Counted from the stretch's first letter, positions 1,490-64,000 are shown. The stretch: 64,000 nucleotides of DNA from an uncultured Acidobacteriota bacterium (GCA_963700695.1 CAVOYO010000003.1:61180-125179), one strand, 5' to 3'. Notes: generated from the sequence alone by a model not told the origin. Program-made: numbers and translations.

Positions 1490-3157
1490 AGCATGGGGAT
1501 CCGGACGCCGCGCTCGCGGGCGACCTCGATCGCGCGCTCGTAGCCGGCGTCGACGTGGCGCATGACCCCGGTGCCCGGGTCGGTCGTCAGCACGCGCTCG
1601 AGGCGCTCGGCGGCCTCGTCGGTCCCGTCCGCGACCACGACCATGCCCGCGTGGATCGCGTAGCCCATCCCGACGCCGCCGCCGTGGTGCACCGAGACCC
1701 AGGTGGCGCCCGCCACCGCGTTGAGCAGCGCGTTGAGGATCGGCCAGTCGGCGACGGCATCGGAGCCGTCCCGCATCGCCTCGGTTTCGCGGTTGGGTGA
1801 TGCGACCGAGCCGGCGTCGAGGTGGTCGCGTCCGATCACGATCGGGCGCCTTCACCCGCCCGCTACGAACGAGGTCGTTGAAGACCAGGCCCATCTTCGC
1901 CCGCTCGCCGTAGCCGAGCCAGCAGATCCGGCAGGGCAGGCCCTGCGGCTTCACCCTCTCGCGGGCCAGGGTGATCCAGCGGGCGAGGGCCTCGTCCTCG
2001 GGGAAGGTGGCGAGCACGGCGTCGTCGGTGGCGGCGAGGTCGTCCATGTCGCCCGAGAGGCACGCCCAGCGGAACGGGCCCTTCCCCTCGCAGAACAGCG
2101 GTCGGATGTAGGCGGGCACGAAGCCGGGGAAGTCGAAGGCGTTCTCGACCCCGGCCTTCTGCGCCTCGGCGCGGATGTTGTTGCCGTAGTCGAAGACGAC
2201 CGACCCTCGCTCCTTGAGGGCGAGCATGGCCCGCACGTGCTCGCCCATGCTGCGGCGGGCCTCGGCCATGTACTTCGTGGGATCTTCCGTCGCGCAGCTC
2301 GAGCGCCTCGTCGTAGGTCATGCCGTTCGGGACGTAGCCGTTGAGCGGGTCGTGGGCGCTCGTCTGGTCGGTGACGAGGTCGGGCACGGACGCCCCGGCG
2401 CACCAGCTCGGGGAGGACGTCGGCCGCGTTGCCGAGGAGACCGATCGAGAGCGGCCGGCCCTCGTCGGCGGCCTCGCGGGCCTGGGCGAGGGCCTCGTCG
2501 AGGCTCTCCGTCATCACGTCGAGGTAGCGCCGTCTCGAGGCGCCGCTCGATCCGGTGGCGGTCGACCTCGACCGCGATCATCACGCCCTCGTTCATGGTG
2601 GCGGCGAGGGGCTGCGCGCCGCCCATGCCGCCGAGTCCGGCGGTGACCACCAGACGCCCCTTGAGGCTCGCCGCCGAAGTGCTGTCGGGCGGCCTCGGCG
2701 AAGGTCTCGTAGGTGCCCTGGAGGATCCCCTGCGTGCCGATGTAGATCCACGAGCCCGCGGTCATCTGGCCGAACATCATCAGGCCCTTGCGGTCGAGCT
2801 CGTAGAAGTGCTCCCACGTGGCCCACGCCGGGACGAGCATCGAGTTCGAGATCAGGACCCGCGGGGCGTCGGCGTGCGTCCGGAAGACGCCGACCGGCTT
2901 GCCGGACTGGACGAGGAGCGTCTCGTCGTTCCCGAGCGATCGCAGCGAGCGCACGATGGCGTCGTAGCACTCCCAGTTGCGGGCGGCCTTGCCGATCCCG
3001 CCGTAGACGACCAGGTCCTGCGGGCCGCTCTGCCGACCTCGGGGTCCAGGTTGTTCATGAGCATGCGCAGCGCCGCCTCCTGCTGCCAGGACTTGCAGGA
3101 GAGGGTGGTGCCGCGCGGGGCGCGGATGGTGCGGGGCGTCGTGGTCACATCAGCCAT
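1486..3157 (-). CDS. hutU: urocanate hydratase (at least 6 frame changes as assembled)
   Basis: Collinear fragments in three minus frames: [41 protein letters not shown] / [46 protein letters not shown] / [27 protein letters not shown] / [22 protein letters not shown] / [20 protein letters not shown] / [43 protein letters not shown] / [25 protein letters not shown]. Total span about 557 codons. Confidence 0.88.
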
Positions 3158-3175
3158 CTGGGCTCCTCGGTGTCG

Positions 3176-3466
3176 TCATCTCCGTCGATCTTCGGCGGGC
3201 GGTCCGTTCGCCCACCTCGTGCAAGACGCGGAACCACCTCTGGGGACCGGTCCTCTTGCGGGGACCGGGGAGGCGCGAGTCTGCCACCACCTCTCCAGCC
3301 AGCCCGCGAGCAGGAGGAGGATCGCCCCGGCCCCGAGGAGGAAGGGCCAGGTCTGGCGCAGGCCAAAACGCGCGCCCGCCGCGACCAGGGGGAGGCCGAC
3401 GAGGGCGAGCAGGAGTGCGCCCGCTACCCAGGGGGCGCGCCGGCGCAGCTTGGACAAGGACGTCAT
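3176..3466 (-). CDS. hypothetical small membrane protein (96 aa)
   Basis: MTSLSKLRRRAPWVAGALLLALVGLPLVAAGARFGLRQTWPFLLGAGAILLLLAGWLERWW: two hydrophobic helices between hutU and hutH. No family recognised, weak RBS. Confidence 0.3.
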   Translation of the reverse strand: MTSLSKLRRRAPWVAGALLLALVGLPLVAAGARFGLRQTWPFLLGAGAILLLLAGWLERWWQTRASPVPARGPVPRGGSASCTRWANGPPAEDRRR

Positions 3467-3482
3467 CGGGAGGGGTGCCTCT

Positions 3483-5037
3483 TCACCCCTCCAGCCTACC
3501 GCAGACCGCCTCGGCGGCGGCGAGAACGTCGCCCGAGGCGACCAGGACGGCGGCGGCCTCGATGTCGGGGCTGACCACGCGGTCGCGCTCTCGGGCCGCG
3601 ACCTGTGTCCGCAGCCGGGCATGGACCGCCTCGAGGGCGGGCGAGGAGCGCAGGGGGCGGCGGAACTCGAGCGCCTCGGCCGCGGCGACGAGCTCGATGG
3701 CGAGCACCCGCCGCGTGTTCGCCACCACCAGCGCCGCCTTGTGGGCGGCGGTCACTCCCATCGAGACGTGGTCCTCCTTGCCCGCCGAGGTGGGGATGGA
3801 GTCGACGCTGGCCGGGTGGGCGAGGGCCTTGCTCTCGGACGCGAGGGCCGCCGCCGTGACGTGCGCCATCATCAGGCCCGAGTGCAGGCCGCCCTCGCGC
3901 GCGAGGAAGGCGGGCAGCCCGGACAGGGCGGGATTGACCAGCCGCTCGCGTGCGCCGCTCGCTGATGGCCCCGAGCTCGGCGGCGGCGATGGCGAGGAGG
4001 TCGGCGGCGATCGCCACCGGCTGGCCGTGGAAGTTGCCGCCGGAGAGGATGTCTCCGCTCTCGGCGAACACCATCGGGTTGTCGGTGGCGGAGTTCATCT
4101 CGACGCTCACCGTCCGCGCGACGAAGTCGAGGGCGTCGCGCAGGGCCCCGTGGACCTGGGGCATGCAGCGCAGGCTGTAGGCGTCCTGGACCTGCCGGGC
4201 AGTCCTGGTGCGAGGCGCGGATCGCGCTCCCCTCGAGGAGGCGCCGAAGACACCGTGCCGAGGCGGCCTGTCCCGGGTGGGGACGCGCGGCGTGGATGCG
4301 CTCGTCGAAGGCGACGTCGGTTCCCTGGAGCGCGTCGAGGGTCAGGGCCCCCACCACGTCGGCGGTGCGAGCGAGGCGCTGGGCCTCGGCGAGGGCGAGC
4401 CCGGTCACCGCGGTCATCAGCTGCGTTCCGTTGATGAGGGCCAGGCCCTCCTTGGGTTCCAGGGTCACCGGGGCGAGGCCGGCCGCCCGCAGCGCCGCCG
4501 CGCCGGCGAGGCGTCGGCCTTCGAAGGTGCACTCGCCCTCGCCCACGAGGGGGAGCGCGAGGTGGGCGAGGGGGGCCAGGTCTCCGCTCGCCCCGACCGA
4601 GCCCGCGCGAGGGCACCACCGGATGCACGCCGCGGTTGAGCATGGCGACCAGCAGCTCCAGCGTCTCGAGGCGGATGCCCGAGAAGCCCTTGGCCAGGAC
4701 GTTGGCGCGGAGGAGCATCAGGGCCCGGGTCTCCGGCGTCGCCGAGAGGGTCGCCGACGCCCGCGGCGTGGCTGCGCACGAGGTTGAGCTGCAGCTCCCG
4801 GAGGCGGTCGAGCGGGATGTGGACGTCGGCGAAGTTGCCGAAGCCGGTGGTGACGCCGTAGACGACCGCCCCGCGCGCCACGGCATCGTCGACGATGCGG
4901 CGGGAGGCGCGGACGGCCTCCCTGGCCGCGGGAGCGAGGGTCACCGGACGTCCCTGGCGCGACACCGCCTCGAGAGCGGGGAGGTCGAGCCCACCGCCGT
5001 CGATGGCCAGCGGCTCGATCTCGTTCTTCGGGCTCAT
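3483..5037 (-). CDS. hutH: histidine ammonia-lyase (at least 4 frame changes as assembled)
   Basis: Collinear fragments: [18 protein letters not shown]...[14 protein letters not shown] / [38 protein letters not shown] / [23 protein letters not shown] / [33 protein letters not shown]...GNFHGQPVA / [15 protein letters not shown]. Span about 518 codons. Confidence 0.88.
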
Positions 5038-9681: not shown

Positions 9682-10290
9682 GAGCGCGGCACGCGTTTCT
9701 GCGACGGCTTCCCGCAGACGCCCTACGGGAAGGACATCGCGATCAAGCTCGCCGGGGCCGGAGGCGACGGTGCCCAGACCGCGGCGCTTCTCCTGACGCG
9801 GGCCGCCATCAACGAGGGCTTCGACTCGACCCACATCCCGAGCTACGGCCCCGAGTCGCGCGGGGGCACCTCGTACGCGGACGTGCGCATCGCGCGAGGA
9901 CGAGGTCCTCTCGCCGGCGGCGCCGGAGCCCCACGCTCCTGGTCGCGTTCAACGCGCCGAGCCTGGCGAAGTTCGGGCCCCGGGTCGTCGAGGGCGGCGT
10001 GGTCATCTACGACAGCTCGGTCATCGCCGAGGTGCCGCCGCTGCCGCCGGGGGTGCAAGGTGGTTCCGGTCCCGTTCGCCCAGATCGCGGTCGACCTCGG
10101 GAAGGCCATCGTGAAGAACGTCGTGGCGCTCGGGGCGCTGCAGGAGGCGACACAGATCTTCCCGAAGGAGACTCTCCTCGCCGCCATCCGGCAGGCCCTG
10201 TCCCACAAGTGCGCGCTGATCCCCCTGAACGAGGAGGCCTTCGCGTGGGGCGTCAGGTCCGCGGCCAGTGCCGCGAAGGGGGACTCGTGA
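9682..10290 (+). CDS. 2-oxoacid:ferredoxin oxidoreductase gamma subunit (frameshifted; start not resolved)
   Basis: KDIAIKLAGAGGDGAQTAALLLTRAAINEGFDSTHIPSYGPESRGGTSYADVRIA / LLVAFNAPSLAKFGPRVVEGGVVIYDSS / VVPVPFAQIAVDLGKAIVKNVVALGALQEAT...; stop TGA 10288-10290. Confidence 0.75.
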   Translation, partial: ERGTRFCDGFPQTPYGKDIAIKLAGAGGDGAQTAALLLTRAAINEGFDSTHIPSYGPESRGGTSYADVRIARGRGPLAGGAGAPRSWSRSTRRAWRSSGPGSSRAAWSSTTARSSPRCRRCRRGCKVVPVPFAQIAVDLGKAIVKNVVALGALQEATQIFPKETLLAAIRQALSHKCALIPLNEEAFAWGVRSAASAAKGDS

Positions 10291-10544
10291 GCGTCACCGC
10301 CAGCGAGACACTGAGCCCGGAGGAGCGGCGCCTTCTTCTCGCCCTCCGCGAGATCCCGGAGAGCCCGCTGCGTGAGCTCTTCACGACCCTCGTCTCCGAG
10401 CTGACCGACTTCGTGACGAGCCCGACCTGTGCCGAGATGCAGGCCGACGGTGCCCCCTGCAGCTCGGCCGAGGCCTCCTGCGACCAGTGCCGCAAGCTGG
10501 AGCAGCTCCTCGAAGGGCTCCGGACGAGACTTCACGCAGGCTGA
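10287..10544 (+). CDS. hypothetical small Cys-containing protein (85 aa)
   Basis: GTG 10287 overlaps the gamma-subunit stop (GTGA). VSVTASETLSPEERRLLLALREIPESPLRELF...SPTCAEMQADGAPCSSAEASCDQCRKLEQLLEGL; four Cys spaced C-x10-C-x6-C-x2-C; no family recognised. Confidence 0.4.
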   Translation: MSVTASETLSPEERRLLLALREIPESPLRELFTTLVSELTDFVTSPTCAEMQADGAPCSSAEASCDQCRKLEQLLEGLRTRLHAG

Positions 10545-10580
10545 GGCCGCCCCGCCGCGGCGGCCACCGGAGGCGCATCC

Positions 10581-11696
10581 ATGGACATCGGCATTCCGAA
10601 GGAGGCACGGCCGCGCGAGCACCGCGTGGCGCTCGCCCCGTCCGGGGTTCGGACGCTGGTCCAGCAGGGACATCGCGTGTGGGTCGAGTCGGACGCGGGA
10701 CTCGACGCCGGCCACCCGAACTCGGCGTACGAGTCGGCGGGGGCCAGCATCGCGTACAGCCGCGAGGAGGTCCTCGAGAGAGCGGCGCTCGTCGCCACCG
10801 TCTACGCTCCGCTGGCCTGCGACTACGAGCACCTCGAGAAGGACCAGGTCGTCTTCGGGTTCTGGGCCCTTCCCGCGACCCGCCCCGAGGACTTCGAGGC
10901 GCTCCTCGCCCGTGGGATCACCGCGGTCGGCATCGAGGCGATCGAGGACTCCGCCGGGCACGCCCCGGTGCGCACGAGCATGTCGGAGATCGCGGGGAGC
11001 CTCGCGGTGACGCTCGGCAGCAGCTTCCTCCTGAACGAGTTCGGGGGGAAGGGGATCCTGCTCGGGGGCGTGGCCGGGGTTCCCCCCGCGCACTTCGTCA
11101 TCCTCGGCGCCGGCGTTCTCGGCCGCTCGGCGGCGCGGGCCGCGATCGGTCTCGGCGCCCAGGTCACGCTCCTCGACCGCAGCGTGGGGATCCTGCGCGA
11201 GGTGGGCCGGGAGGTGCCCTCCGGGTACACCACGATGCTCGCCACCCGACCCAACATCGAGATGGCGCTCTCCTTCGCCGACCTCGTCCTCGGGGCGGTG
11301 GCGGTGAGCGGGCAGCGGCCGCCGATCCTCGTGACCCGCGACATGCTGCGCCACATGAAGCCGCGCACGGTGGTGATGGACCTCTCGATCGACATGGGAG
11401 GCTGCTTCGAGACCTCGCGACCGACTTCGCTCGCCAGCCCCACGTACGAGGTGGACGGCATCTTGCACATGTGCGTCCCCAACCTCCCGTCGGTGGCCGC
11501 GCGCACCGCGACCAAGGCCTTCACGAACGCGACCCTGCCCTACCTGCAGACGATCGCGGAGCAGGGGATCGAGAGTGCGGTGAAGGCCCATCCCGACCTC
11601 GCGCGCGGAATCCTCCTCTACCGTGGTCAGTGCGCCAGCGAGACCCTGGCCCGCTCCTTCGGGGTCGAGTGGCGCCCCGTGCCGATCGAAGGGTAG
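10581..11696 (+). CDS. alanine dehydrogenase/PNT-family NAD(P)-dependent dehydrogenase (divergent; substrate uncertain)
   Basis: Intact 371 aa; MDIGIPKEARPREHRVALAPSGVRTLVQQGHRVWVE...; Rossmann motif VILGAGVLGRSAARAAIGLGAQVTLLD. Clear AlaDH fold signature, but the KVKEP and YLHLA motif positions read TVYAP and FWALP. Confidence 0.75.
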   Translation: MDIGIPKEARPREHRVALAPSGVRTLVQQGHRVWVESDAGLDAGHPNSAYESAGASIAYSREEVLERAALVATVYAPLACDYEHLEKDQVVFGFWALPATRPEDFEALLARGITAVGIEAIEDSAGHAPVRTSMSEIAGSLAVTLGSSFLLNEFGGKGILLGGVAGVPPAHFVILGAGVLGRSAARAAIGLGAQVTLLDRSVGILREVGREVPSGYTTMLATRPNIEMALSFADLVLGAVAVSGQRPPILVTRDMLRHMKPRTVVMDLSIDMGGCFETSRPTSLASPTYEVDGILHMCVPNLPSVAARTATKAFTNATLPYLQTIAEQGIESAVKAHPDLARGILLYRGQCASETLARSFGVEWRPVPIEG

Positions 11697-11698
11697 CG

Positions 11699-12997
11699 AT
11701 GGCCTGGACGGACATCTATCGGAGCCGGGTCACCACCGCGGAGAAGGCGGTGGGGTGCGTGGCCTCCGGTCACCACGTGTGGCTGCACGCGGGCTGCAAC
11801 AACCCCGAGGAGCTGGTCAAGGCCCTCGTAGGCCGGGCCGGCGAGCTGGAGAACGTCGAGGTCACCCACCTCCTGACCTTCGGGGCCGCCGACCACGTTG
11901 ATCCCCGATACGAGAAGACCTTCCGCCACCGGGCCCTCTTCACCGGCCACAACGTCCGCCAGGCGGTGAACGAGGGCCGGGCCGACTTCGTTCCCGTCTT
12001 TCTCTCCGAGATCCCGGGCCTGGTTCGGGACGGGACCATCCCCGTCGACGTGGCCCTCATCCAGGTCTCACCGCCCGACGAGCACGGCTTCTGCTCTTAC
12101 GGGGTGGGGGTGGAGTGCACCAAGGCGGCCGCGGAAACCGCGAAGACCGTGGTGGCCCTCGTCAACCGGCAGATGCCCCGCTCGCTGGGAGACGCGTTCA
12201 TCCACGTCTCCCGCCTCACCCACGTCGTCGAGATCGACCGCCCGGTGCTGGAGCTGCCGCAGGTGACGGAGGTCGGCGACGTCGCCCGGGCGATCGGGAA
12301 GAACGTGGCGGACCTCATCGAAGATGGGTCCACGCTTCAGATGGGGATCGGCGAGATCCCGGACGCGGTCCTCCTGTTCCTGAACGAGAAGAAGGATCTG
12401 GGAATACACACCGAGATGTTCTCGGACGGGGTCGTCGAGCTGTTCGAGCGAGGGGTCGTGACCGGGGAGGCCAAGACCCTCCACAAGGGGAAGATCATCT
12501 CCTCGTTCGTCCTCGGGTCCAAGAAGACCTTCGACTTCCTCGACAACAACCCGTTCGTCGAGTTCCATCCCACCGAGTACGTGAACGACCCCTTCATCAT
12601 CGCCAAGAACGAGAAGATGGTGGCGATCAACTCCGCGATCGCGGTGGACATCACCGGCCAGATCTGCGCCGACTCGATGGGGAAGAACATCTACTCCGGG
12701 TTCGGGGGACAGGTCGACTTCATCCGGGGCGCGGCCCGCTCGCCCGGGGGCAAGCCGATCATCGCGCTGCGCTCGACCGCGAAGGACGGGGCGGTCTCGC
12801 GCATCGTGGACACCCTCACCGAGGGCGCCGGTGTCGTGACCACGCGGGCCGACGTCCACTACGTGGCGACGGAGTACGGGGTCGCGAACCTCCACGGCCG
12901 CTCCCTCCGCGAGCGGGCGAAGGCTCTCATCGAGTGCGCCCACCCGGACTTCCGCGAAGGCCTGCGGTCCGCCGCCCGCGCGCGGAACCTGATGTAG
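11699..12997 (+). CDS. acetyl-CoA hydrolase/transferase family protein (4-hydroxybutyrate CoA-transferase-like)
   Basis: Intact 432 aa; MAWTDIYRSRVTTAEKAVGCVASGHHVWLHAGCNNPEEL..., GSTLQMGIGEIPDAV, SGFGGQVDFIRGAARSPGGKPIIAL, VHYVATEYGVANLHG. Confidence 0.85.
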   Translation: MAWTDIYRSRVTTAEKAVGCVASGHHVWLHAGCNNPEELVKALVGRAGELENVEVTHLLTFGAADHVDPRYEKTFRHRALFTGHNVRQAVNEGRADFVPVFLSEIPGLVRDGTIPVDVALIQVSPPDEHGFCSYGVGVECTKAAAETAKTVVALVNRQMPRSLGDAFIHVSRLTHVVEIDRPVLELPQVTEVGDVARAIGKNVADLIEDGSTLQMGIGEIPDAVLLFLNEKKDLGIHTEMFSDGVVELFERGVVTGEAKTLHKGKIISSFVLGSKKTFDFLDNNPFVEFHPTEYVNDPFIIAKNEKMVAINSAIAVDITGQICADSMGKNIYSGFGGQVDFIRGAARSPGGKPIIALRSTAKDGAVSRIVDTLTEGAGVVTTRADVHYVATEYGVANLHGRSLRERAKALIECAHPDFREGLRSAARARNLM

Positions 12998-49721: not shown

Positions 49722-50075
49722 TCATTCATCGACCCCCCACCCCAACCCTCCCCACGTAGGGGGAGGGGAAGGCTTGAGATAGGCCATGGACACCTGCGTG
49801 TCCCCAGGGAAGGGACACGCAGGCGAAGCCTGGCCTGGTGGCCAGTCGCAGTTGAACCATGCCCCCCAGCGTATCCCTCCCCACGTAGGGGGCTCGGGGG
49901 ACGCGACGTCGAGCTTGCGAGACGAGCGTCGACCCCGAGTGTACGCCGCGACGCGTAAGCGTCGCCTCCGACAGGCCGGGAAGGCTTGAGATAGGCCACG
50001 GACACCCGCGTGTCCCCGGGGAGAGGACACGCGGGCGAGGCCTGGCCTGGTGGCCGGTCGCACTTGTTCATCGAC
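49722..50075 (+). repeat. intergenic modular repeat cluster, locus 5 (X + Y + X units, bounded by TTCATCGACC)
   Basis: Largest and best-preserved copy: head ATTCATCGACCCCCCACC...CCCTCCCCACGTAGGGGGAGGGG, GGCTTGAGATAGGCC (twice), hairpins at 49793-49823 and 50005-50035, GCCTGGCCTGGTGGCC(A/G)GTCGCA (twice), Y unit with GCGACGC-GTAA-GCGTCGC (49948-49965); ends ...CACTTGTTCATCGACC. Confidence 0.92.
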
Positions 50076-54091: not shown

Positions 54092-55411
54092 ATGATCCCT
54101 CTCCCGCGCATCGCTCTCGTCGGTCGCCCCAATGTCGGGAAGTCGACGCTCTTCAATCGGATCTGCGGGCGCCGCAAGGCCATCACCGACGGACGGCCGG
54201 GCTCGACGCGCGACCGCAACTACGCCCAGGTGGAGTGGCAGGGGGCCGCCTTCGAGCTGATCGACACCGGCGGCCTGCTCCTCGGGACCGACGACCCGCT
54301 CCTCGGCCCCGCGGTCGAGCAGGTCCAGCGGGCCATCGAGGAGGCGGACGTCGTGCTGTTCCTGGTCGACGGCCGGGCTGGTCTCCTGCCCGACGACGAG
54401 GAGATCGCCCGCCAGCTCCGGCGCCACGGGCAAGCGCGTGATCCTGGTGGTGAACAAGGTCGAGGGGCCCTCGGTCGGGCCCGGCGAGTTCGCCCGGCTG
54501 GGCTTCGGGCCCCTGTTCGCGATCTCGGCCGAGCACGGCCAGGGCATCGGCGACCTGCTCGACGCGGCCCTCGAGGGGCTTCCCGTTGCGGTCCTGGAGG
54601 ATGGGGCATCGCCACCCCTCCGTCTGGCGCTCGTCGGTCGCCCCAATGTCGGCAAGTCCTCTCTGCTCAACCGGCTCCTCGGCGCGGAGAGGGCGGTCGT
54701 GTCGGCCATCCCCGGCACGACGCGGGACTCCGTGGACAGTCCGTTCGAGCGGGATGGCCGGCGCTACCTGCTCGTGGACACGGCGGGGATCCGGCGCGTG
54801 CGTCTGCTCAAGGAGAACGTCGATCACGTGAGCGTCGTTCAGGCGCGACGGGCGATCGAGCGCGCCGACGTGGGCGTGGTCGTGCTGGACGCCGAGTCGG
54901 GCCTGCGGGAGATGGACGCGACGATCGCGGGCCGGGTCGTCGAGGCCGGCCTCGGGCTGGTCCTCGCTGTCAACAAGTGGGACACCGCCCGTGGCCATGG
55001 ACTCACCCAGCGGACGCTTTCGAGCGGGACGTTCGGGACGCGCTCAAGTTCGCCCCGTGGGCCCCGGTGGTCTTCGTGTCGGCGACGAAGGGCCAGGGGC
55101 TGGACCGCCTCCTCGCGACGGTGGGGAAGGTCGAGGACACGCGGCGCTTTCGGGTCACCACGGGGGAGCTGAACCGCCTCCTGGCGCGGGCGGCCCAGGC
55201 GCACAGCCCGAAGCCGGACCGGGGACACCGATCGGTGCGGATCCTCTTCGGGAGCCAGATCGGCACCGCCCCCCCCACCTTCGCCCTCTCCGTGAATCAG
55301 CCCGTCGACCTGCACTTCTCCTACAGACGGTACCTGGAGAACCGGATCCGGGAGGCCTTCGGGTTCGAGGGGACCCCCCTGCGGCTCAAGATCCGCCACC
55401 GAAAGCACTGA
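54092..55411 (+). CDS. der: ribosome-associated GTPase Der/EngA (two compensating frameshifts near 54430 and 55000)
   Basis: Two GTPase domains, each with GRPNVGKS(T/S)L; DTGG / DTAG; NKVE / NKWD; C-terminal KH-like domain ...PPTFALSVNQPVDLHFSYRRYLENRIREAF. The middle third lies in the 54438..55172 frame. Confidence 0.9.
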   Translation: MIPLPRIALVGRPNVGKSTLFNRICGRRKAITDGRPGSTRDRNYAQVEWQGAAFELIDTGGLLLGTDDPLLGPAVEQVQRAIEEADVVLFLVDGRAGLLPDDEEIARQLRRHGQARDPGGEQGRGALGRARRVRPAGLRAPVRDLGRARPGHRRPARRGPRGASRCGPGGWGIATPPSGARRSPQCRQVLSAQPAPRRGEGGRVGHPRHDAGLRGQSVRAGWPALPARGHGGDPARASAQGERRSRERRSGATGDRARRRGRGRAGRRVGPAGDGRDDRGPGRRGRPRAGPRCQQVGHRPWPWTHPADAFERDVRDALKFAPWAPVVFVSATKGQGLDRLLATVGKVEDTRRFRVTTGELNRLLARAAQAHSPKPDRGHRSVRILFGSQIGTAPPTFALSVNQPVDLHFSYRRYLENRIREAFGFEGTPLRLKIRHRKH

Positions 55412-56251: not shown

Positions 56252-56328
56252 CGGGATGTAGCGCAGCCTGGTAGCGCACCTGCTTGGGGTGCAGGTGGTC
56301 GCCGGTTCAAATCCGGCCATCCCGACCA
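56252..56328 (+). tRNA. tRNA-Pro (anticodon GGG)
   Basis: CGGGATG TA GCGC AGCCTGGTA GCGC A CCTGC TTGGGGT GCAGG TGGTC GCCGG TTCAAAT CCGGC CATCCCG A CCA. Confidence 0.9.
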
Positions 56329-56386: not shown

Positions 56387-57269
56387 ATGACCGAACCGCT
56401 CATCCTGGTGACCAACGACGACGGCGTGCGAGCCCGGGGGATGCCGATCCTCGCGAATGCGCTCGCGAGCAGGCGCAGACGTGCACGACGTGGCCCCGGA
56501 TCAGGAGCAGAGCGCCACCTCTCACTCCGAATCGGCGCTCTCACTCGCTGAACATCAAGGATCCGCTTCGCGCGCAGCGGATCGAACCGCAGGTCCACGC
56601 GGTGAACGGCACCCCCGCGGACTGCGTCCATCTCGCCATGATCGAGCTGCTGCCGAGACGGCCCGACCTCGTGGTCTCTGGCATCAACGCAGGGACCCAA
56701 CCTCGCCGACGACATCTACCGCTCCGGTACGGTGGCGGGCGCCCGCGAGCGGCGGTTCTACGGCGTGCACGCGATCGCGATCCTCGTTCGCCGCCCGTGA
56801 CGGGGAGCGACTTGAGCCATGCCGCCGAATTCGCGCGGAGGCTCTCCGCCCGCGTACTCGCGGACGGACTGCCTGGCGGAGCTTCCTGAACGTGAACGTT
56901 CCCGCCGGGTCCGCCGGACGGAGTCCACTGACCGTCCAGTGGCAGCCCTCGCACGCAGCCGGGCCCGTCGAAGGCCCCGGGAACCCGGGTGCGGGCTACT
57001 ACTGGGCCGACGAGGACCGGCACCGGTGGGAGAGCGACGCCCCCTCGGATCGGGGCGTCATCAGCAGCGGCCGGATCTCGGTGACGCTCATCCAGACCGA
57101 CTGCACCAACCACCGGTTGACGGACAGGCTGCAGGGCTGGGCCCGGGACCTGAATGGAGCGGCCCGGGAGGGGCAGCCGACAGGCGGCTGGCGCCGAAGA
57201 GCGCTGAGAGCGCGGTTGGAGCGTCCCGGCGCGCGTGGTGTAGAATTGGGTCCTTCGCTCGGGGCGTAG
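56387..57269 (+). CDS. surE: 5'/3'-nucleotidase SurE (multiple frame changes; 3' end uncertain and, as drawn, touches the next tRNA)
   Basis: MTEPLILVTNDDGVRARG... / VAPDQEQSATSHS / VNGTPADCVHLAMIELLPRRPDLVVSGINAG / SGTVAGAREAA-like / GRISVTLIQTDCT in different + frames. Confidence 0.75.
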
Positions 57270-57336
57270 CGCAGCCTGGTAGCGCGCTTGGTTCGGGACC
57301 AAGAGGTCCGGAGTTCAAATCTCCGCGCCCCGACCA
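57260..57336 (+). tRNA. tRNA-Pro (anticodon CGG)
   Basis: CGGGGCG TA GCGC AGCCTGGTA GCGC G CTTGG TTCGGGA CCAAG AGGTC CGGAG TTCAAAT CTCCG CGCCCCG A CCA. Confidence 0.9.
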
Positions 57337-57505
57337 CTTCCACCAACAACTCGCTTGTGCGTCAAGACCTCGGAGTTGCCGGGGGGGAGGTCCCTCGGTG
57401 CCGCTGAGGGTCGGGACGCCCGGCTTGGCGTGGAGGCGATCCGGACGGCGGCAGGCCGCGTCGCCTGCACGAAGAAGCTAGAATCCGTGCGGGGGAGCCC
57501 CTCGG

Positions 57506-59657
57506 ATGAAGGTGGCCATCGTCTACAACCGGAACAGCCAGAACGTCATCAACCTCTTCGGCATGCCGAACCGCGAGAAGATCGGCATGAAGACCATCGG
57601 CCGCCTCGCCGATGCGCTCCGCAAGGGCGGTCATCAGGTGGTCGCCTTCGAGGGCGACAAGGATCTGATCGAGAAGCTCGAGGATTTCATGCCGCGGGTC
57701 GTGCAGGGAGAACGCCCGGGCATGGTCTTCAACGTGTCCTACGGTCTGCAAGGCCAGGCGCGCTACACGCACGTGCCGAGCATCCTGGAGATGGTGGGCA
57801 TCCCGTATGTGGCCTCGGGGCCGATGGGGCACTCGTTGTCCCTCGACAAGGTCGTGACGAAGATGATCCTCAAGCAGCACGGCCTTCCCACGCCGAACTT
57901 CACGGTGATGCACGCCCCGGATGCCCCGGTCTCCGGGCTCGCCTATCCGATGATCGTCAAGCCCCGGAACGAAGCGGTGTCGTTCGGGCTCAAGGTGGTC
58001 CACGACGAGGGCGAGCTGCGCGAGGCGGCCCGGGTGATCTTCGACGAATACAAGCAGCCGGTCCTCGTCGAGCAGTTCATCGAAGGCCGGGAGATCAACG
58101 TCGGCCTCCTCGGGAACAACCCCCCGGAGGCGTTTCCGCCGGTGGAGCTGGGATTCGGCGATGGCCCCTCGGTCTATAGCTACGAGGACAAGACCGGTCG
58201 AAGCGGACGGGTCATCGAGCACATCTGCCCGGCGCCGATCGGGGAGGAGATCAGCCGCCGGGCCCAGGAGATTGCGATCGGGGCCTTCCAGGCCCTCGGG
58301 TTGCAGGACTGCGCCCGTGTCGACATGCGCCTCGAGGGGGAGGGAAGCCTCTACGTCCTCGAGACCAACAGCCTCCCGAGCCTGGCCGAGCGCGGCTCCT
58401 ATCTCGTCGGGGCGGCTCATTTGGGCCTCGACTTCACGTCGTTCGTCAACCGCCTGGTCGAGGTCGCGAGCGCCCGCTACTTCGGTACTCCCGAACCGCC
58501 GGTCCTCGACGCCCGCCGGGTCGACACGCGCTCCCACGCGGTGGGCTTCGTGACCCAGCGCCGGGAGGTGATCGAGCGCCGGCTCCGGGACTGGGTGGCG
58601 GTGTCGAGCCCCACCTCGGACCCCGTGGGGATCCAGCAGGCGGTCGCGCGCGCCACCGCCCTCTTCGACGATCTGGGCATGAAGGCGGTGGGGCCCCTCA
58701 CCGACCCGCCCCACGCATGGACCTGGGAGACTCAGGCTGGCCTGGATGGCGGCATCCTGCTCGTGGCCCACGTGGACGTCACCGCGGTGGCCTCGACCCC
58801 ACACCAGCCCTTCCGCCGTGAGCCGGAGTGGCTCCACGGCGAGGGTATCGGGAGCTCTCGGGCCCCGCTGGTCATGATCGAGTTCGCACTGCGAGCGCTC
58901 CGTAGCATCCGGCGCCTGCGCAGACTGCCCCTGGGTGTCCTGCTGTACGCGGATGAAGGTCGGGATGCCCGCGACAGCGCAGAGGCGATCCGGACGGCGG
59001 CGGGCCGAGCAAAGCGGGTGATCGTCCTGCGGCCGGGTCTGCCCGACGAGGGCGTCGTCTTGCAGCGGCGCGGCAACCGCCGCTTTCACCTCCGCGTGGC
59101 GGGCGTGGCAGTCAGCCTGGGGCGAGCCGCGCGACAGAAGGGCGTGCTCCGGTGGACGTGGGACCGCCTGGAGGCGATCTCGCAGCTCGGCTCGTCAAGA
59201 AGCCGGGTCTCGGTGTCGGTGCTGGTCGATCGGGACCGAGCGCCACCCCACGCGCCTCCCGCACCGGGTGACGGCGACGCTCCTCATGACCTACCCGGAC
59301 CCGAAGACGGCCGACCGGACCGAGGAGCGGATGCGGACCCTGCTGGGCAAGCGCGGCCCGAGGTGGGAGCTTGTCCGCGAGGCCGACCGCCCCCCCATGC
59401 GCGAGCGCCCAATCAACACACGGCTCTACGGCGCGCTGGCCGCCGTGGCCACGGACCATGGCCTGAAGCTCAAGAAGGACAGCTCGGCCTGGGCCTCGGT
59501 GGCCGGACTGGTGCCGGCGAAGACGGCGGCTGTGTGCGGCTTCGGTCCCACGACGAAAGAGCGGGGCAAGCCCCAGGAGGCGGTCTCGCGGATCGCCCTC
59601 ATCCAGCACACCCTCATCCTGGCGGATTTCCTCGCTCGCGAGCTCGAGCAGAGGTAG
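57506..59657 (+). CDS. ATP-grasp (D-Ala-D-Ala ligase-like) / M20-peptidase-like fusion protein, paralog 1 (one frameshift near 59233)
   Basis: N-terminal about 330 aa: MKVAIVYNRNS..., MIVKPRNEAVSFGLKVV, LVEQFIEGREINVGLLGN, LYVLETNSLPSL (E-x-N Mg site). C-terminal about 380 aa: ILLVAHVDV (HxD), WLHGEGIGSSRAPL, VLLYADEG, and after the frame change MTYPDPKTADRTEERMRTLLG...CGFGPTTKERGKPQEAVSRIALIQHTLILADFL. Confidence 0.75.
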
Positions 59658-59669
59658 GGACCCGGGCCC

Positions 59670-61445
59670 TCAGCGGGGCGGTCCGGCCGCCGAGCCGTCA
59701 CGCCGGGGGTCGGCAACCCCGGTCAGTTCGCCGTCGTTCCGCATCACGAGCTGGACGCACCCCAGATAGAAGGAGTAGGGGTCGCGCCGCTGAATCTCGA
59801 ATCCGGCGGCCTGAAGGGCTTCGGGGATATCGTCCCGCATGCGTGAGGCCTCGAGGGAGACGAGGCCGTCGAGCGAGCAGAAGAGCCGCGGCGCGTCTAC
59901 CGCCGCGAGCGGCGTGTGAGTCTGGAGCCGCAGCAGCACCTGGAGGATCGACGGGGTGATCCGCCCGCTGCCGGGCGAACCGATGACCAGCCAGGGGCGC
60001 TGGCCGCGGAAGACGATGGTCGGAGCGACGCTGGCCCAGGGGGCGGCGTTTGGCCGCAGGTAGTAGGGGTGAGCGATGTCCTCGGTTTCGAACGCGCTCA
60101 TGTAGTTGTTGTAGAGGAAGCCGAGGCCAGGGGTGGCGACCGCCGCCCCGTAGACACGCTCGATCGACTGCGTGAGCCCAACCGCGTTGCCCTCGCCATC
60201 CATGACGGAGAGGTGCGTGGTCTCGCCGCTCCCGGCCGCCCTCCGAACCACGCGGCGGGCAATCCTCTGCGCGTGCTCGGTGCTGATCATACGTTTCTCG
60301 CTGACCTGGGCGTAGAAGTGCGGATCGAACGGCCGGTCCCGGCGGTCGCGGAAGGCCCGGCGGATCGTCTCCGCCAGGGCAACTGCGCCCCTCGGTGAGT
60401 CGAGGTCGCGCAGTTCCGGCGGGATCTGCTGGTAGACATTGAGCATCTGGACCAGCGTCCTCCCGGCGCCCGGCGGGGGGAAGGTGAAGACCCGCAGGCC
60501 CTCGTAGCGGGTCGCGAGTGGCCGACGCTCGATGGGCCACGGGATCTGGGCCAGATCGTCCCTCCGGATCAGCCCGTCGTTGGCCGTCATGTCGGCGTGG
60601 ATCTGTGCCGCGATCTCGCCCGTGTAAAAGTCCTCGATCCCGTGCTCGGCCAGCCGGGCGAGGGTCTCGGCGAGCACCGGTTGGCGTTGGCGGGCGCCGG
60701 CGACGTATGGCGCCTCCCCTCCGCGCAGGAAGAACGGCGCCGCGCTCCCGTCGGCGAGCTTGCTCAGCTCTCGGCGGGTCAGGGCCTGCTGGAGCGCGCT
60801 CACCCGATAGCCCTTTCGCGCAAGTCGGATGGCCGGCTCGAGAACCCGGGCGAGCGAGAGCCTCCCGTGGGTCCTGAGTGCCCAGGCGAGCGTGGCCGGC
60901 GTGCTGGGCACGGTGGTGGCGCGGTATCCCCGGAGTCGGCTTGCCCTGCCGAGGGCAGCAGCATCCGTGCGGTTGGGGGCACGCGATGAGCCATCGAGGG
61001 CGAAGGTTCGTCGCGGCGCGGCGAGGTAGACGAGCATCGTGGTCTGGCCGCCGAGACCGGAGGCCGCCGGCTCACAGACGCCGAGTGCGAAGGCGGCCGC
61101 GACGGCGGCGTCGACGGCGTTGCCCCCGTCCGCGAGCATCTCGGCTCCGGCCTCGCTGGCCCGGTGGTGGGCGGTGGCGATCATGCCGCGTCGAGACACC
61201 GCCACGCGCTGGGCGTGGACGATGCGTCGATCGCCGAGCTCGAGGAGATCGGTGTCGACGCGGTCCGGTGTCTGCGCCGCGGTGGTGGCCGTGGTTGGCG
61301 CTCCGTCGTTCTTCGTCGCCGGAGGCGAGGTGTCGGACGCCGCCGTGGCGGTCACCTTCTTCTTGGTGGTCATGTGGTGGCCTGCGAGGCGCAGCATGCC
61401 ACGTCTCGAGGGCTCCCGCCAACGCTCACGGTACCGTCTCCCCAT
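59670..61445 (-). CDS. ggt: gamma-glutamyltranspeptidase family protein (start codon uncertain: 61445, 61397 or 61373)
   Basis: Intact; MIATAHHRASEAGAEMLADGGNAVDAAVAAAFALGVCEPAASGLGGQ, autoprocessing/nucleophile region GSGETTHLSVMDGEGNAVGLTQSI, GLGFLYNN, IGSPGSGRI, ADPRRDG. The N-terminus is T/A/P-rich with no hydrophobic signal segment. Confidence 0.88.
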   Translation of the reverse strand: MGRRYRERWREPSRRGMLRLAGHHMTTKKKVTATAASDTSPPATKNDGAPTTATTAAQTPDRVDTDLLELGDRRIVHAQRVAVSRRGMIATAHHRASEAGAEMLADGGNAVDAAVAAAFALGVCEPAASGLGGQTTMLVYLAAPRRTFALDGSSRAPNRTDAAALGRASRLRGYRATTVPSTPATLAWALRTHGRLSLARVLEPAIRLARKGYRVSALQQALTRRELSKLADGSAAPFFLRGGEAPYVAGARQRQPVLAETLARLAEHGIEDFYTGEIAAQIHADMTANDGLIRRDDLAQIPWPIERRPLATRYEGLRVFTFPPPGAGRTLVQMLNVYQQIPPELRDLDSPRGAVALAETIRRAFRDRRDRPFDPHFYAQVSEKRMISTEHAQRIARRVVRRAAGSGETTHLSVMDGEGNAVGLTQSIERVYGAAVATPGLGFLYNNYMSAFETEDIAHPYYLRPNAAPWASVAPTIVFRGQRPWLVIGSPGSGRITPSILQVLLRLQTHTPLAAVDAPRLFCSLDGLVSLEASRMRDDIPEALQAAGFEIQRRDPYSFYLGCVQLVMRNDGELTGVADPRRDGSAAGPPR

Positions 61446-62202
61446 CCGCGTTGCACGCTAGGCCCGCGAGGGCCGCGGCAAATCGCCCGCGCAGCTCCAC
61501 GAGCCGCCGCTCGTCGATCGTGCAACGATCCGCGTCGAACCACGGCTCGGAAAGATAGAGCGACCGGTTCATCTCGATCTGGATCCAGGGCAGCGGGTGG
61601 CGCCCGTAACGGCGGGTGATGTAGCCACCCTTGAAGGGGCGGTTGAGCGCGACCTGCTGTGGAGCGCAGTCGAAGGAGCGCGCCAGCCGCTCGGCGAGGC
61701 GCTCGAGCAGAGCGTCGTCACAGGTGCGTCCTTCGCCGTTGCTCAGGCAGAACAGTGGGCGCGGCGTGTCGGCATCGGGGGCCACCGGCGGGGGGAGGGC
61801 GGCCATCGAGTGGCAGTCGAGCCCCAGTCGCAGCCCCGCGCCGCGCCCCGCCTCCGACAGCGCCGCGTGGTACGGACGGTAGTATCTCGCCAGGAGTGTC
61901 TCGGTGAGCGCGTCGTCCAGCGGCGTGTCATAGACGGGACGACCAAAGCAGGTGGCGGTCTTCACGACGCCGTCGGTGTTGGCGGGGGGACGATCATCCT
62001 CCGCACGGTTCAGGTCGACGAAGGCGCGGGCGACGTGGGCGACCTGGACGTGGGCGACCCGGTCTCCTAAGTCGTAGATGCCGGGGGTGAAGGCGTCGCC
62101 ATCCTCGAAGATCTCCGCCGCGGTCGCGCGGACGCGCCCCGCGACCTCCGGCGGCGTCTCCGTCCCCCCGTGAGGGATCGAGATCACTATCGGAAGGCTC
62201 AT
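61426..62202 (-). CDS. N-formylglutamate amidohydrolase (FGase, PF05013-like) family protein
   Basis: MSLPIVISIPHGGTETPPEV..., AFVDLNRAEDD, RYYRPYH, LGLDCHSM, PFKGGYITRRYG; about 258 aa; ATGA overlap with the upstream gene's stop. Confidence 0.78.
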   Translation of the reverse strand: MSLPIVISIPHGGTETPPEVAGRVRATAAEIFEDGDAFTPGIYDLGDRVAHVQVAHVARAFVDLNRAEDDRPPANTDGVVKTATCFGRPVYDTPLDDALTETLLARYYRPYHAALSEAGRGAGLRLGLDCHSMAALPPPVAPDADTPRPLFCLSNGEGRTCDDALLERLAERLARSFDCAPQQVALNRPFKGGYITRRYGRHPLPWIQIEMNRSLYLSEPWFDADRCTIDERRLVELRGRFAAALAGLACNADGETVP

Positions 62203-64000
62203 TGGCCAGGCAGTCCTGCCGGCGGCGCGCTCGAGATCCGAACGAGGTACTGTGCGAGCAGCAGCGTGTGTTGGAGGAGGCTGGTTCGGTGCACCGCCTC
62301 GTGCGGGGTGTGCAGGTCGCGCGCCAGGGGGGCCAGGCCGCACACGACCCCCGCCTCCTCCGGGACGAGTCCCGCGACCGAAGGGGAGGCTGAGCTCTCC
62401 TGAATCAGCGGGATCTCCCAGGCCTCGGCCACATCCGCCAGCTCCTGCGCCAGCTGGGCGTTGCGCCTGCGCTCGAGCATCGGTGGCCGGTCGGAGACCA
62501 GGTGGAGCTGCCAGGGCGGTCCGCCCTTGCCCAGGAGGCCGCGGATCTTCGCCTCCGTCTCGTCCGCGGTGTGGGACTCCGGGTAGCTGACGAGGACGCG
62601 CGCCCTGACCCGGTGGGGCAGCAGATCGGGAAAGCGCGTCGTCTCGAAGCTGACCGTGAACACCTCCAGGCGGTCCTTGCGCGACGCCAGCTCCGCCATC
62701 GCCTCGACCCTGTTGCAGGCCCACCGCAAGACATCCGTCCTCTTCGCGGCCTGGCCGAGACCGGCGGGCTTGCCCTCGACCACGAGCTGGTAGGTGCGGA
62801 GGCCCCGGCGGCGGGTGATGATCTTCCCGCTCGGCGAGCCCGGCTGGAGCACGAGGACCCTCTTGACGCGGGAGGCGGCCCGAACGATGAGGTCGCGGCT
62901 GAAACGGCACGCCCGAGCCTCGTCGGCGTAGACGAGCACTCCGATCCGCTGGTGGTGGAGCCGCTTCTGATGGCGCAACGACCGCAGCGCGAACTCCAGC
63001 ATCGCCAGCGGCGCGCGGGAGGCGCCGATGGCCTCGCCGTACAGCCACTCCGGGTCTCGCCGGAACGCCTGGAAGGGGACCTCGTCGCCGAGCAGCATGT
63101 CGAGGTGGGCGATCAAGAGGGTGCCACCCTCCATCCCCTTGGCGGTCTCCCAGGTCGAGACGATGTGCTCGTCCGACAGGTCCTTGACGGGCTGGAGGCC
63201 CATCTCGCGGTAGCGGTCGGCCAGGTTGCGCTCCAGCGCCCGGATGCCGATCGTGTCGTCGGTGCGGCTGGAGAGCGAGACCAGGTCCGAGACACGACGC
63301 TCGATCTGGTCGCGGCGGGATGTCAGGAACTGGAACGCGGTCTGCGCCGGAGAGGCGTCCCTGCCGCTGATCGGAGCGGGCGAGGGCGTCCCGAAGTAGC
63401 GGGCGCTCGCGACCTCCACGAGACGGTTGACCAGGGCCGGGAAGTCGAGGCCGGCTTGCTGCGCCCCGATGACGAAGGAGCCGCGGTAGCCGAGGCTGGG
63501 CAGGCTGTTGAGCTCCAGCAGATAGAGGTTGCCCTCGGGGTCGAGCCGCACGTCGACGCGCGCGCAGTCATAGCATCCGAGCGCGGTGAAGGCTCGGCGT
63601 GCGAGGTCCTGGGCCCGGGCGGTGGTCGCCTCGTCGAGGTCCGCCGGGCACAGGTAGCCGACCGTCCGTCCCGAGCGCCCTCCCTTGTCGTCGTTGGAGT
63701 AGATGTTCGGGCCCCCGGAGAAGTCCAGCTCCACGGGTGGAAAGGCCTCGGGCGGATTGCCCAGGACGCCGACGTTGATCTCGCGCCCGTCGATGAAGCG
63801 CTCCACGAGGACCGGCTCCTCGAACTCCTTGAAGATGACGTCGGTCGCCGCTCTCAGCTCCTCCTCGTCCCGAACGACCTTCAGCCCGAAGGAGTCCGCC
63901 CCGCTCTTGGGCTTGACGATCAGCGGGAAGGGCAGGTCGGGGGTCTCGAAGCCAGGCGCGTGCACGACCGTGAAGTCGGGGGTCGGCAGGCCCGCCTGCT
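62199..64000 (-). CDS. ATP-grasp (Ddl-like) / M20-peptidase-like fusion protein, paralog 2 (N-terminus beyond window edge)
   Basis: Homology to paralog 1 continues to the window edge (QAGLPTPDFTVMHAPGF...). LIVKPKSGADSFGLKVV, LVERFIDGREINVGVLGNPPEAFPPVEL, LYLLELNSLPSL, NRLVEVASARYFGTP, LLIAHLDM, WLYGEAIGASRAPL, VLVYADEA, CGLAPLARDLHTPHEAVHRTSLLQHTLLLAQYL. Confidence 0.78.
   Translation of the reverse strand, partial: QAGLPTPDFTVVHAPGFETPDLPFPLIVKPKSGADSFGLKVVRDEEELRAATDVIFKEFEEPVLVERFIDGREINVGVLGNPPEAFPPVELDFSGGPNIYSNDDKGGRSGRTVGYLCPADLDEATTARAQDLARRAFTALGCYDCARVDVRLDPEGNLYLLELNSLPSLGYRGSFVIGAQQAGLDFPALVNRLVEVASARYFGTPSPAPISGRDASPAQTAFQFLTSRRDQIERRVSDLVSLSSRTDDTIGIRALERNLADRYREMGLQPVKDLSDEHIVSTWETAKGMEGGTLLIAHLDMLLGDEVPFQAFRRDPEWLYGEAIGASRAPLAMLEFALRSLRHQKRLHHQRIGVLVYADEARACRFSRDLIVRAASRVKRVLVLQPGSPSGKIITRRRGLRTYQLVVEGKPAGLGQAAKRTDVLRWACNRVEAMAELASRKDRLEVFTVSFETTRFPDLLPHRVRARVLVSYPESHTADETEAKIRGLLGKGGPPWQLHLVSDRPPMLERRRNAQLAQELADVAEAWEIPLIQESSASPSVAGLVPEEAGVVCGLAPLARDLHTPHEAVHRTSLLQHTLLLAQYLVRISSAPPAGLPGQ

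Follow-up and report, generated by a model that had tools for sequence, protein, structure and literature searches.

What is made, or unmade, by two similar genes that each join an ATP-grasp ligase to an M20 peptidase-like domain and that flank the genes of two amide hydrolases? The question is raised by a 64,000-nt stretch of DNA from an uncultured Acidobacteriota bacterium (GCA_963700695.1 CAVOYO010000003.1:61180-125179; G+C ~70%), referred to here over its whole length as the window, in which fusion A, a γ-glutamyltransferase (GGT) homologue, an N-formylglutamate amidohydrolase (FGase) homologue and a second fusion, B, occupy the last part, from position 57506 onward. A preliminary description of this DNA saw in them four amide-bond-making or -breaking activities in one tight module, with a possibly γ-glutamyl-containing product. 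Comparison with related genomes reveals a conserved unit of one fusion, one GGT and one FGase gene with three credible enzyme activities, and the probability that this unit carries out a make-and-break cycle for a small cytoplasmic metabolite is put at roughly one half.

A three-gene unit conserved across phyla

When one genome was scanned for each GTDB species, relatives of the fusion turned up in 405 species, the best 80 of which are all metagenome-assembled genomes (MAGs) of Acidobacteriota, Planctomycetota, Acidimicrobiia, Alphaproteobacteria, Desulfobacterota, Cloacimonadota, and others; the Acidimicrobiia among these 80 include the sponge-associated Ca. Poriferisodalis and Ca. Aldehydirespirator. 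The nearest relative of the window is an Acidobacteriota MAG (85%). Homologues of fusion A reach 88% identity, and the family is compact, with 61-65% identity between phyla and a mean column identity of 66%.

All open reading frames (ORFs) of 94 loci were clustered without prior bias. Of these loci, 85 are non-redundant, and in 77 of the 85 the downstream DNA extends far enough for a judgement. Beside the fusion, only the GGT and FGase families are near-universal, and the complete trio is found in 72 of the 77 informative non-redundant loci, which belong to at least four phyla (Acidobacteriota, Planctomycetota, Actinomycetota, and Pseudomonadota, besides others) and are nearly all MAGs. The usual order is fusion→GGT→FGase, with gaps of 3-5 nt or overlaps of 4 nt. 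Co-conservation of the neighbourhood had been set beforehand as a refutation test, and the trio proved to be kept across phyla, so that the idea of amide-making and amide-breaking enzymes in one tight module is borne out by a co-conserved unit. The layout first described, two fusions flanking GGT and FGase, is correct for the genes of the window, whereas the unit conserved elsewhere contains a single ligase.

Among the few loci without the full trio, L001/L002 have a sulfatase gene after the fusion in place of GGT; the fusion is called there as 838 aa (10001-12517) and shares part of its span with an FGase ORF that converges on it (12159-12911) and was missed in gene calling.

A Ddl-type ligase with altered specificity residues

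Profile searches against Pfam, which had been proposed for each protein, returned Dala_Dala_lig_C (E 1e-35) and Peptidase_M20 (E ~5e-6; both fusions), FGase (5e-54), and G_glu_transpept (5e-112). The ATP-grasp half matches D-alanine–D-alanine ligases (Ddl) in the PDB at E 1.6e-30, with only 22-28% identity to Ddl. Structure prediction of the whole fusion, likewise proposed, was run with AlphaFold2 on 34 homologues (pLDDT 84.7) and gave a Ddl fold for the N-terminal half (Foldseek TM-score 0.82 to P. aeruginosa DdlA/DdlB) and a carboxypeptidase G2 (CPG2) fold for the C-terminal half.

Across 226 homologues, E24, K152, D228/K229, R271, D273, E286, and N288 are invariant, and the Ddl catalytic set E15, K144, K215, R255, D257, E270, and N272 is matched by E24, K152, K229, R271, D273, E286, and N288. 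From the specificity triad of Ddl, Glu15-Ser150-Tyr216, only the Glu is kept; the equivalent of Ser150 is Val or Asp, and that of Tyr216 is Thr or Gly. The Ddl family cut-offs of NCBIfam are missed (173.9 bits vs 243 for PRK01372; 158.1 vs 245.65 for TIGR01205). As the catalytic equivalents are invariant while Ser150 and Tyr216 are replaced, the ligase half looks active, yet does not look like a D-Ala–D-Ala ligase.

A probable pseudo-peptidase domain fused to the ligase

The family profile of the M20 half matches CPG2 (1CG2) at E 1.2e-8, and the C-terminal half of the model resembles 1CG2/6XJ5 with a Foldseek TM-score of 0.77 at ~16% identity. Pfam PF01546 is matched weakly and over its full length in both fusions (26-27 bits vs a cut-off of 24.6), and NCBIfam and a PDB profile search place the domain nearest to glutamate carboxypeptidases. 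In the 226 homologues, the five di-zinc ligands of CPG2 (His112, Asp141, Glu176, Glu200, and His385) are not retained as a set: the Asp141 equivalent is Ser, Thr, Val, or Arg (S450 in A), Glu176 has become Gly (G485) and Glu200 has become Arg (R509), the His112 equivalent (H422 in A) is variable, being His in 183, and that of His385 is Gly, Tyr, Arg, or His. The equivalent of the general base Glu175 and the Asp of the H-x-D motif are retained.

As a control, the profile of the C-terminal half was searched against 1.8 billion representative proteins. The nearest stand-alone relatives (~385 aa) keep all five zinc ligands, H-x-D/D/E-E/E/H, in the same alignment in which all the ~715-aa fused cluster representatives are without the set. 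Because the fused representatives have lost ligands that the stand-alone relatives keep, the M20 domain of the fusion is predicted to be a pseudo-peptidase, with no di-zinc centre expected. Of the four amide activities first proposed, only three are therefore credible, since in every fused lineage the M20-like domain is devoid of residues equivalent to the bridging Asp, to Glu176, and to Glu200. Conservation of the domain is nonetheless very strong, many of its Arg, His, Asp, and Ser residues being invariant, and it must therefore have some role, for which dimerisation and ligand binding are conservative guesses.

M20-like relatives deficient in the ligands also occur as stand-alone proteins (P0288, P0290, and P0327; ~390 aa) and with a different N-terminal extension of ~170 aa (P0289, P0298, P0325, and P0359; ~555 aa); the pseudo-M20 group is thus wider than the ATP-grasp fusion.

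The two hydrolase partners

The GGT homologue aligns end to end with the E. coli and Bacillus GGTs, and its small subunit begins at the T-T-H site. Partner GGTs have T-T-H in 81/81 cases and the α-carboxylate Arg (Arg114 equivalent) in 78/81. In the clamp that holds the γ-glutamyl α-amino group, the first position (Asn411/Glu423) is Glu in 77/81, the position of Gln430/Glu442 is Tyr in 81/81, and that of Asp433/Asp445, which binds the γ-glutamyl α-ammonium, is Ala in 76/81. The TIGR00066 score of the window's homologue is 325 (cut-off 357.85), and neither a hydrophobic N-terminus nor a signal peptide was found in the seven partner GGTs examined. The partner is thus predicted to be a distinct, dedicated cytoplasmic hydrolase of the GGT family with an altered acyl pocket, and the acyl group on which it acts may be glutamyl-like but blocked or devoid of the amino group, since two residues of the α-amino clamp are replaced and the nucleophile and the Arg are kept. 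Given this altered pocket, the γ-glutamyl-containing product of the preliminary description is a lead, not a given.

In the Acidobacteriota lineage of the window (61240-61397), L008, and L013, the GGT is extended at its N-terminus by 30-45 low-complexity residues, among which Thr, Ala, Pro, and Lys are frequent; orthologues in other phyla (537-548 aa) are without this extension.

The FGase homologue covers positions 2-219 of the 219 of the PF05013 profile with 184 bits and matches PDB 2Q7S at E 4.7e-19. Against the HutG equivalog TIGR02017 it scores 93, the cut-off being 278.75, and there are no hut genes in any listed neighbourhood of the unit.

Paralogues of the fusion

The similarity of A and B along their whole length, noticed at the outset, was reproduced: all the quoted shared strings are present, and 588 residues align at 52% identity. 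Fusion A, at 61-65%, is nearer to its orthologues in other phyla than to B, and the duplication is therefore old. B belongs to a smaller clade (B-type relatives are 66-94% identical) that elsewhere has its own B→GGT→FGase operons (L010 and L011). The GGT and FGase of the window are orthologues of the A-type partners, matching the L008 proteins with 83% and 71% identity, whereas the FGase is only 45% identical to that of L011. Two old ligase paralogues share one hydrolase pair in the window, where the genes run B→FGase→GGT, an uncommon arrangement. Both the presence of two paralogues and the placing of FGase before GGT are confined to the window's lineage, two ligases per cluster being the exception.

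The changes from A to B in the loops equivalent to the Ddl substrate loops are NEAV→SGAD at 155-158, YEDKT→NDDKG at 226-230, and E(H/R)→YR at 295-296. These loops form the substrate sites of Ddl, and their differences suggest that A and B act on different substrates.

In L094 (2-1888 and 1951-3532), two genes precede a relative of fusion B (88%): a GGT gene, whose frame seems to be broken, and a third, very divergent fusion, which is 32% identical to A and B and has the same architecture of ATP-grasp and dead M20 domain. L094 shows that paralogue arrays occur in the lineage, and a similar arrangement may therefore lie beyond position 64000. The nearest B relative, in L013 (94%), is accompanied by an extra, shorter GGT-family gene (518 aa, at 1984-3540) that converges on B, stands between B and the FGase→GGT pair, and is absent from the window.

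Ion-channel genes and other neighbours

Genes of the MgtE, CorA, CNNM/CorC, and MscS types are situated within 300 nt of the unit in 21 of the 85 loci, from four phyla, and within the locus in 27. The density of Mg2+ transporter and MscS genes is 1.57 per 10 kb up to 1.5 kb from the unit vs 0.11 per 10 kb at 4.5-7.5 kb, so that it is ~14-fold above the local background beside the unit. The arrangements vary among Acidobacteriota, Planctomycetota, Acidimicrobiia, and Rhodospirillales. In L008 and L014, the closest relatives, the GGT and FGase genes end a co-directional string of mechanosensitive (MS) channel–MgtE_N–MgtE–CNNM–GGT–FGase.

Other recurrent neighbours were set aside. A gene of the MR/MLE enolase superfamily is found 1-9 kb upstream of the fusion in 13 loci (including L004, L019, L041, L049, and L093) and is probably a coincidence, since the family is large, the distances vary, and members from different phyla are no more than 25-34% identical. 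Amidohydrolase, luciferase-like, and xanthine-dehydrogenase-like neighbours represent synteny inside sponge Acidimicrobiia only. An adjacent precursor or carrier peptide was sought by clustering the upstream small ORFs of all loci, which gave only low-complexity or lineage-specific out-of-frame ORFs.

Proposed function and alternatives

As to the direction of the reaction, the type of product, the role of the M20-like domain, and the physiological role, we infer the following course. The ligase would use ATP to phosphorylate a small amino acid at its carboxylate and would then couple it to an amine, as Ddl does, the product being a small amide or peptide that probably contains glutamate; the inactive M20 domain would serve as a dimerisation and/or ligand-binding module rather than as a peptidase; and the GGT-like and FGase-like hydrolases would dismantle the product, so that synthesis and turnover of an intracellular solute could be controlled. 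The CPG2 and FGase families act on N-acyl-glutamates and the GGT family acts on γ-glutamyl amides. Because glutamate amides are recognised by the families of all three non-ligase folds, glutamate or a glutamate-like unit in the product is a reasonable supposition, although the odds on it fall somewhat short of even. The solute might further be tied to Mg2+ or osmotic homeostasis, for instance as an anionic osmolyte or counter-ion, because the unit repeatedly adjoins, or shares operons with, MgtE, CorA, CNNM/CorC, and MscS genes. An ion or osmotic role of this kind is put forward tentatively. In its fullest and more speculative form, which is doubtful as a whole, the proposal would be an undescribed cycle in which a Ddl-type ligase guided by a pseudo-M20 domain makes a glutamate-based, possibly N-blocked and anionic cytoplasmic solute that is degraded by the GGT-like and FGase-like enzymes and buffers Mg2+ or osmotic stress in mostly uncultured Acidobacteriota, Planctomycetota, sponge-associated Acidimicrobiia, and others, with A-, B-, and C-type ligases making related compounds.

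Several points weigh against the cycle. About 70% of the loci are without a transporter neighbour within 10 kb, and one ligase alone cannot explain the need for two different hydrolases. The strong conservation of the M20 half could mean a new catalytic function instead of binding, and with its remodelled pocket the GGT may take an acyl group quite other than glutamyl. Family substrates cannot be named from sequence, and no biochemically characterised member was found. Fusion A is frame-broken in the assembly, and if the indel is real, only B would be functional here.

Four other explanations have been weighed against the cycle. The one that survives best, although unlikely, is a catabolic or salvage route in which an imported amine or acid is conjugated at the cost of ATP and later released by the hydrolases, after the logic of Puu-type γ-glutamylation. 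It would account for hydrolases being more numerous than the ligase, and a ligase with amide hydrolases suits a pathway of this sort; however, the recurrent neighbours of the unit are only Mg2+ and MscS channels, with no conserved oxidase, dehydrogenase, aminotransferase, or uptake transporter, and Puu-type ligases are glutamine-synthetase-like, not Ddl-like.

Slightly more improbable is the modification of a protein or peptide tail, to which the ligase would add amino acids such as glutamates in the manner of RimK or tubulin-tyrosine ligase, the hydrolases trimming them and the M20-like domain docking the protein. Such modifiers do occur among ATP-grasp enzymes, and a fused non-catalytic domain rich in conserved Arg could be a docking module. 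Nevertheless, the ligase is nearest to Ddl and not to RimK in both sequence and fold, its Glu for the free α-amino group of a small substrate (Ddl E15) is invariant, and no conserved small ORF or carrier gene adjoins the fusion in the 85 loci.

The best matches of the ligase half and its public annotation, 'D-alanine-D-alanine ligase', would point to the cell wall, where a paralogue of Ddl that produces D-Ala–D-Ala or some variant of this dipeptide and is fused to a dipeptidase, as in a VanA/VanX-like pair, would act in murein synthesis or recycling. This is very improbable in view of the Ddl scores far under cut-off (174 vs 243 bits), the changed Ser150 and Tyr216 equivalents, a peptidase half without a metal site, partners of the GGT and FGase families, and neighbourhoods in which no mur, ddl, or van genes were seen among those examined. 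That unrelated or decaying genes lie together by chance, a view for which the frameshift of fusion A in the window might speak, is excluded for practical purposes by the near-obligate co-occurrence of the trio across phyla as overlapping or abutting genes, by the family's identity level between phyla, and by the frame-broken state of essential genes of the window as well.

Gene coordinates and the state of the window sequence

The order and strands of the four genes agree with the preliminary description (ORF listing; Table 1), as do the ATGA overlap between the stop of B (62199-62201) and the FGase start (62202-62200), the 12-nt spacer (59658-59669) between the convergent stops of fusion A and the GGT homologue, and the course of fusion B off the window's edge, which was confirmed by translation; 599 of its codons are visible and ~120 N-terminal residues are missing. 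For the GGT homologue, the gene, strand, and stop were right, whereas comparison with the homologue in L013 makes a start downstream of 61445 probable, most likely the one given in Table 1 or possibly 61373.

Table 1. Positions of the features discussed, counted from the first nucleotide of the window.
Feature	Position	Strand	Basis and remarks
TAGAAT, possible -10 promoter element	57479..57484	+	~22 nt upstream of fusion A start; weak evidence
Fusion A (A-type), Ddl-type ATP-grasp ligase + predicted M20-like pseudo-peptidase	57506..59657	+	716 aa once one base is removed; ORF listing, translation, Pfam, NCBIfam
ATP-grasp (Ddl-fold) half of fusion A	57506..58489	+	residues 1 to ~328; PDB Ddl matches, Foldseek
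CPG2-like M20 half of fusion A	58538..59657	+	residues ~345-716; zinc ligand set absent
Single-base insertion, GG vs one G in orthologues	59224..59225	+	frame of fusion A changes from 1 to 2; orthologous DNA of L014 and L008 aligned
GGT-family N-terminal nucleophile (Ntn) hydrolase	59670..61445	-	longest ORF; Pfam; likely start ATG 61397
GGT Thr409, nucleophile	60219-60221	-	alignment
GGT Tyr448	60102-60104	-	alignment
GGT Ala451	60093-60095	-	alignment
FGase-family amidohydrolase	61426..62202	-	258 aa; Pfam FGase, PDB 2Q7S match
Fusion B (B-type paralogue), C-terminal 599 residues	62199..64000	-	N-terminus beyond window end; M20-like half ~62202-63338

Fusion A had been described as one ORF; its span of 2152 nt is no multiple of 3, and the reading frame is broken. 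Frame 1 continues into junk to 59959, and frame 2 encodes the protein's true C-terminus (59226-59657). Without the extra G, a 716-aa protein is obtained that reads ...VLSIGTERHPTRLPHRV... and is identical to that of L014 at 612/716 positions. A CCCC run (59246-59249) was ruled out as the frameshift site by the orthologue DNA alignment, which places the extra base at 59224/59225; some searches with fusion A used a sequence repaired at this run, which differs from the final repair in only 8 residues. An assembly indel is more likely than a pseudogene, because the ~1800 homologues found are all intact, at about 716 aa, and because der/engA and surE in the window are also frame-broken.

The gene der/engA (54092-55411) is broken twice, with frame switches near 54430 and 55020, its GTPase domain 1 and KH-like C-terminus being in the frame of ORF 54092-55411 and its GTPase domain 2 in ORF 54438-55172; since this gene is essential, residual indels in the assembly are indicated. 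The surE gene (56457-57269) is fragmentary, ~31 residues in ORF 56602-56889 matching the Pfam SurE profile and the rest being scattered over other frames, and it is flanked by two tRNA-Pro genes (GGG, 56252-56328; CGG, 57260-57336). To the left of the module, the visible window contains housekeeping genes only: priA, an M50 protease gene, HU, der, IHF, MerR, surE, and the two tRNA-Pro genes. Directly upstream of priA is a repeat set of REP- or MITE-like pattern, which consists of two 89-nt direct repeats, 90% identical (49766-49854 and 49978-50066), each with an internal 31-nt palindrome, together with shorter 31-nt repeats at 49733 and 49862.

Upstream of fusion A, the block GCTAGAATC is kept before the orthologous genes of L015 and L008, with TACAATC in L014. 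A consensus scan for promoters and terminators gave no signal above shuffled expectation, and the 169-nt leader of fusion A folds no better than its shuffles (z -0.84). A riboswitch or leader RNA was rejected, with zero Rfam matches (E≤0.1) in the window from 50 to 64 kb and in seven related loci.

Significance and comparison with known systems

Domain, structure, and literature searches for an already characterised enzyme or pathway that would match found none, the PDB has no entry that spans the fusion, and full-text literature searches found no paper on the trio or the fusion, an earlier in-silico mention being possible. The folds are all known; what appears to be undescribed is their combination, together with the joining of a pseudo-M20 domain to the ligase, the subfamily of GGT, and the association with channel genes. 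Public names of the family are generic or wrong, such as 'ATP-grasp domain-containing protein' and 'D-alanine–D-alanine ligase', and as the latter label is misleading, the finding corrects a widespread mis-annotation even if the product should be ordinary. The unit occurs in hundreds of species of several phyla, most of them known from metagenomes only. If the cycle is true, bacterial Mg2+ or osmotic homeostasis would gain a further small-molecule component, functions could be assigned to an FGase subfamily and to a cytoplasmic subfamily of GGT, and the fusion would provide a clear case of a peptidase fold reused as a non-catalytic ligase module.

With Ddl (PDB 8EVX, 8EVZ, and 2DLN) the fusion shares the three-domain ATP-grasp fold, the ATP/Mg2+ and acyl-phosphate residues, and the Glu to which the first substrate binds with its α-amino group; it differs in the specificity residues of the serine loop and ω-loop, in the 390-aa C-terminal domain fused on, and in a non-murein gene context. 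The C-terminal half has the two-lobed M20 fold of CPG2 and the M20 glutamate carboxypeptidases, including the dimerisation lobe, but other residues stand in place of the bridging Asp141 and of Glu176 and Glu200, and neither His is constant. The GGT partner has the Ntn-hydrolase fold, the autoprocessing T-T-H site, and the α-carboxylate Arg in common with canonical GGTs (E. coli 2DBU/2E0W; Bacillus 4Y23) and the GGT-like cephalosporin acylase (2NLZ), and is set apart from canonical GGT by the missing signal peptide, a score below the TIGR00066 cut-off, and the Tyr and Ala in the clamp. The FGase partner shares the full-length fold and profile of HutG, the N-formylglutamate amidohydrolase of histidine catabolism, but not the equivalog score or the hut context.

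Among whole systems, the Ngg/AsnO pathway for the osmolyte N-acetylglutaminylglutamine amide, reportedly described in PNAS in 2010 by Sagot and co-workers, is said to use a fused ATP-grasp-type enzyme that builds a small glutamine/glutamate peptide with a blocked α-amino group; its fusion partner is a GNAT acetyltransferase and it has no GGT or FGase, the comparison being one of logic and not of sequence. In glutathionylspermidine/trypanothione synthetase-amidase, one polypeptide joins an ATP-grasp synthetase to an amide-hydrolase-type domain that acts on the same metabolite (PMC2427367). That enzyme has an ATP-grasp domain of another clade and an active CHAP-type cysteine amidase, whereas the fusion described here has a metal-less M20 relic and hydrolysis is probably left to separate GGT-like and FGase-like proteins. 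The LdmS–HmrA operon of Staphylococcus aureus, with an L-amino-acid ligase and an M20D peptidase, likewise couples an ATP-grasp ligase genetically to an M20 protein in amino-acid or dipeptide metabolism (PMC9486568), but as separate genes, with an active M20D enzyme and no GGT or FGase partners. Synthetase-amidase fusions, LdmS–HmrA, the ATP-grasp-dependent N-acetylglutaminylglutamine amide, and the γ-glutamyl peptides that accumulate in osmotically stressed E. coli may be taken, by analogy, as precedents for the logic of the unit rather than as systems to which it belongs.

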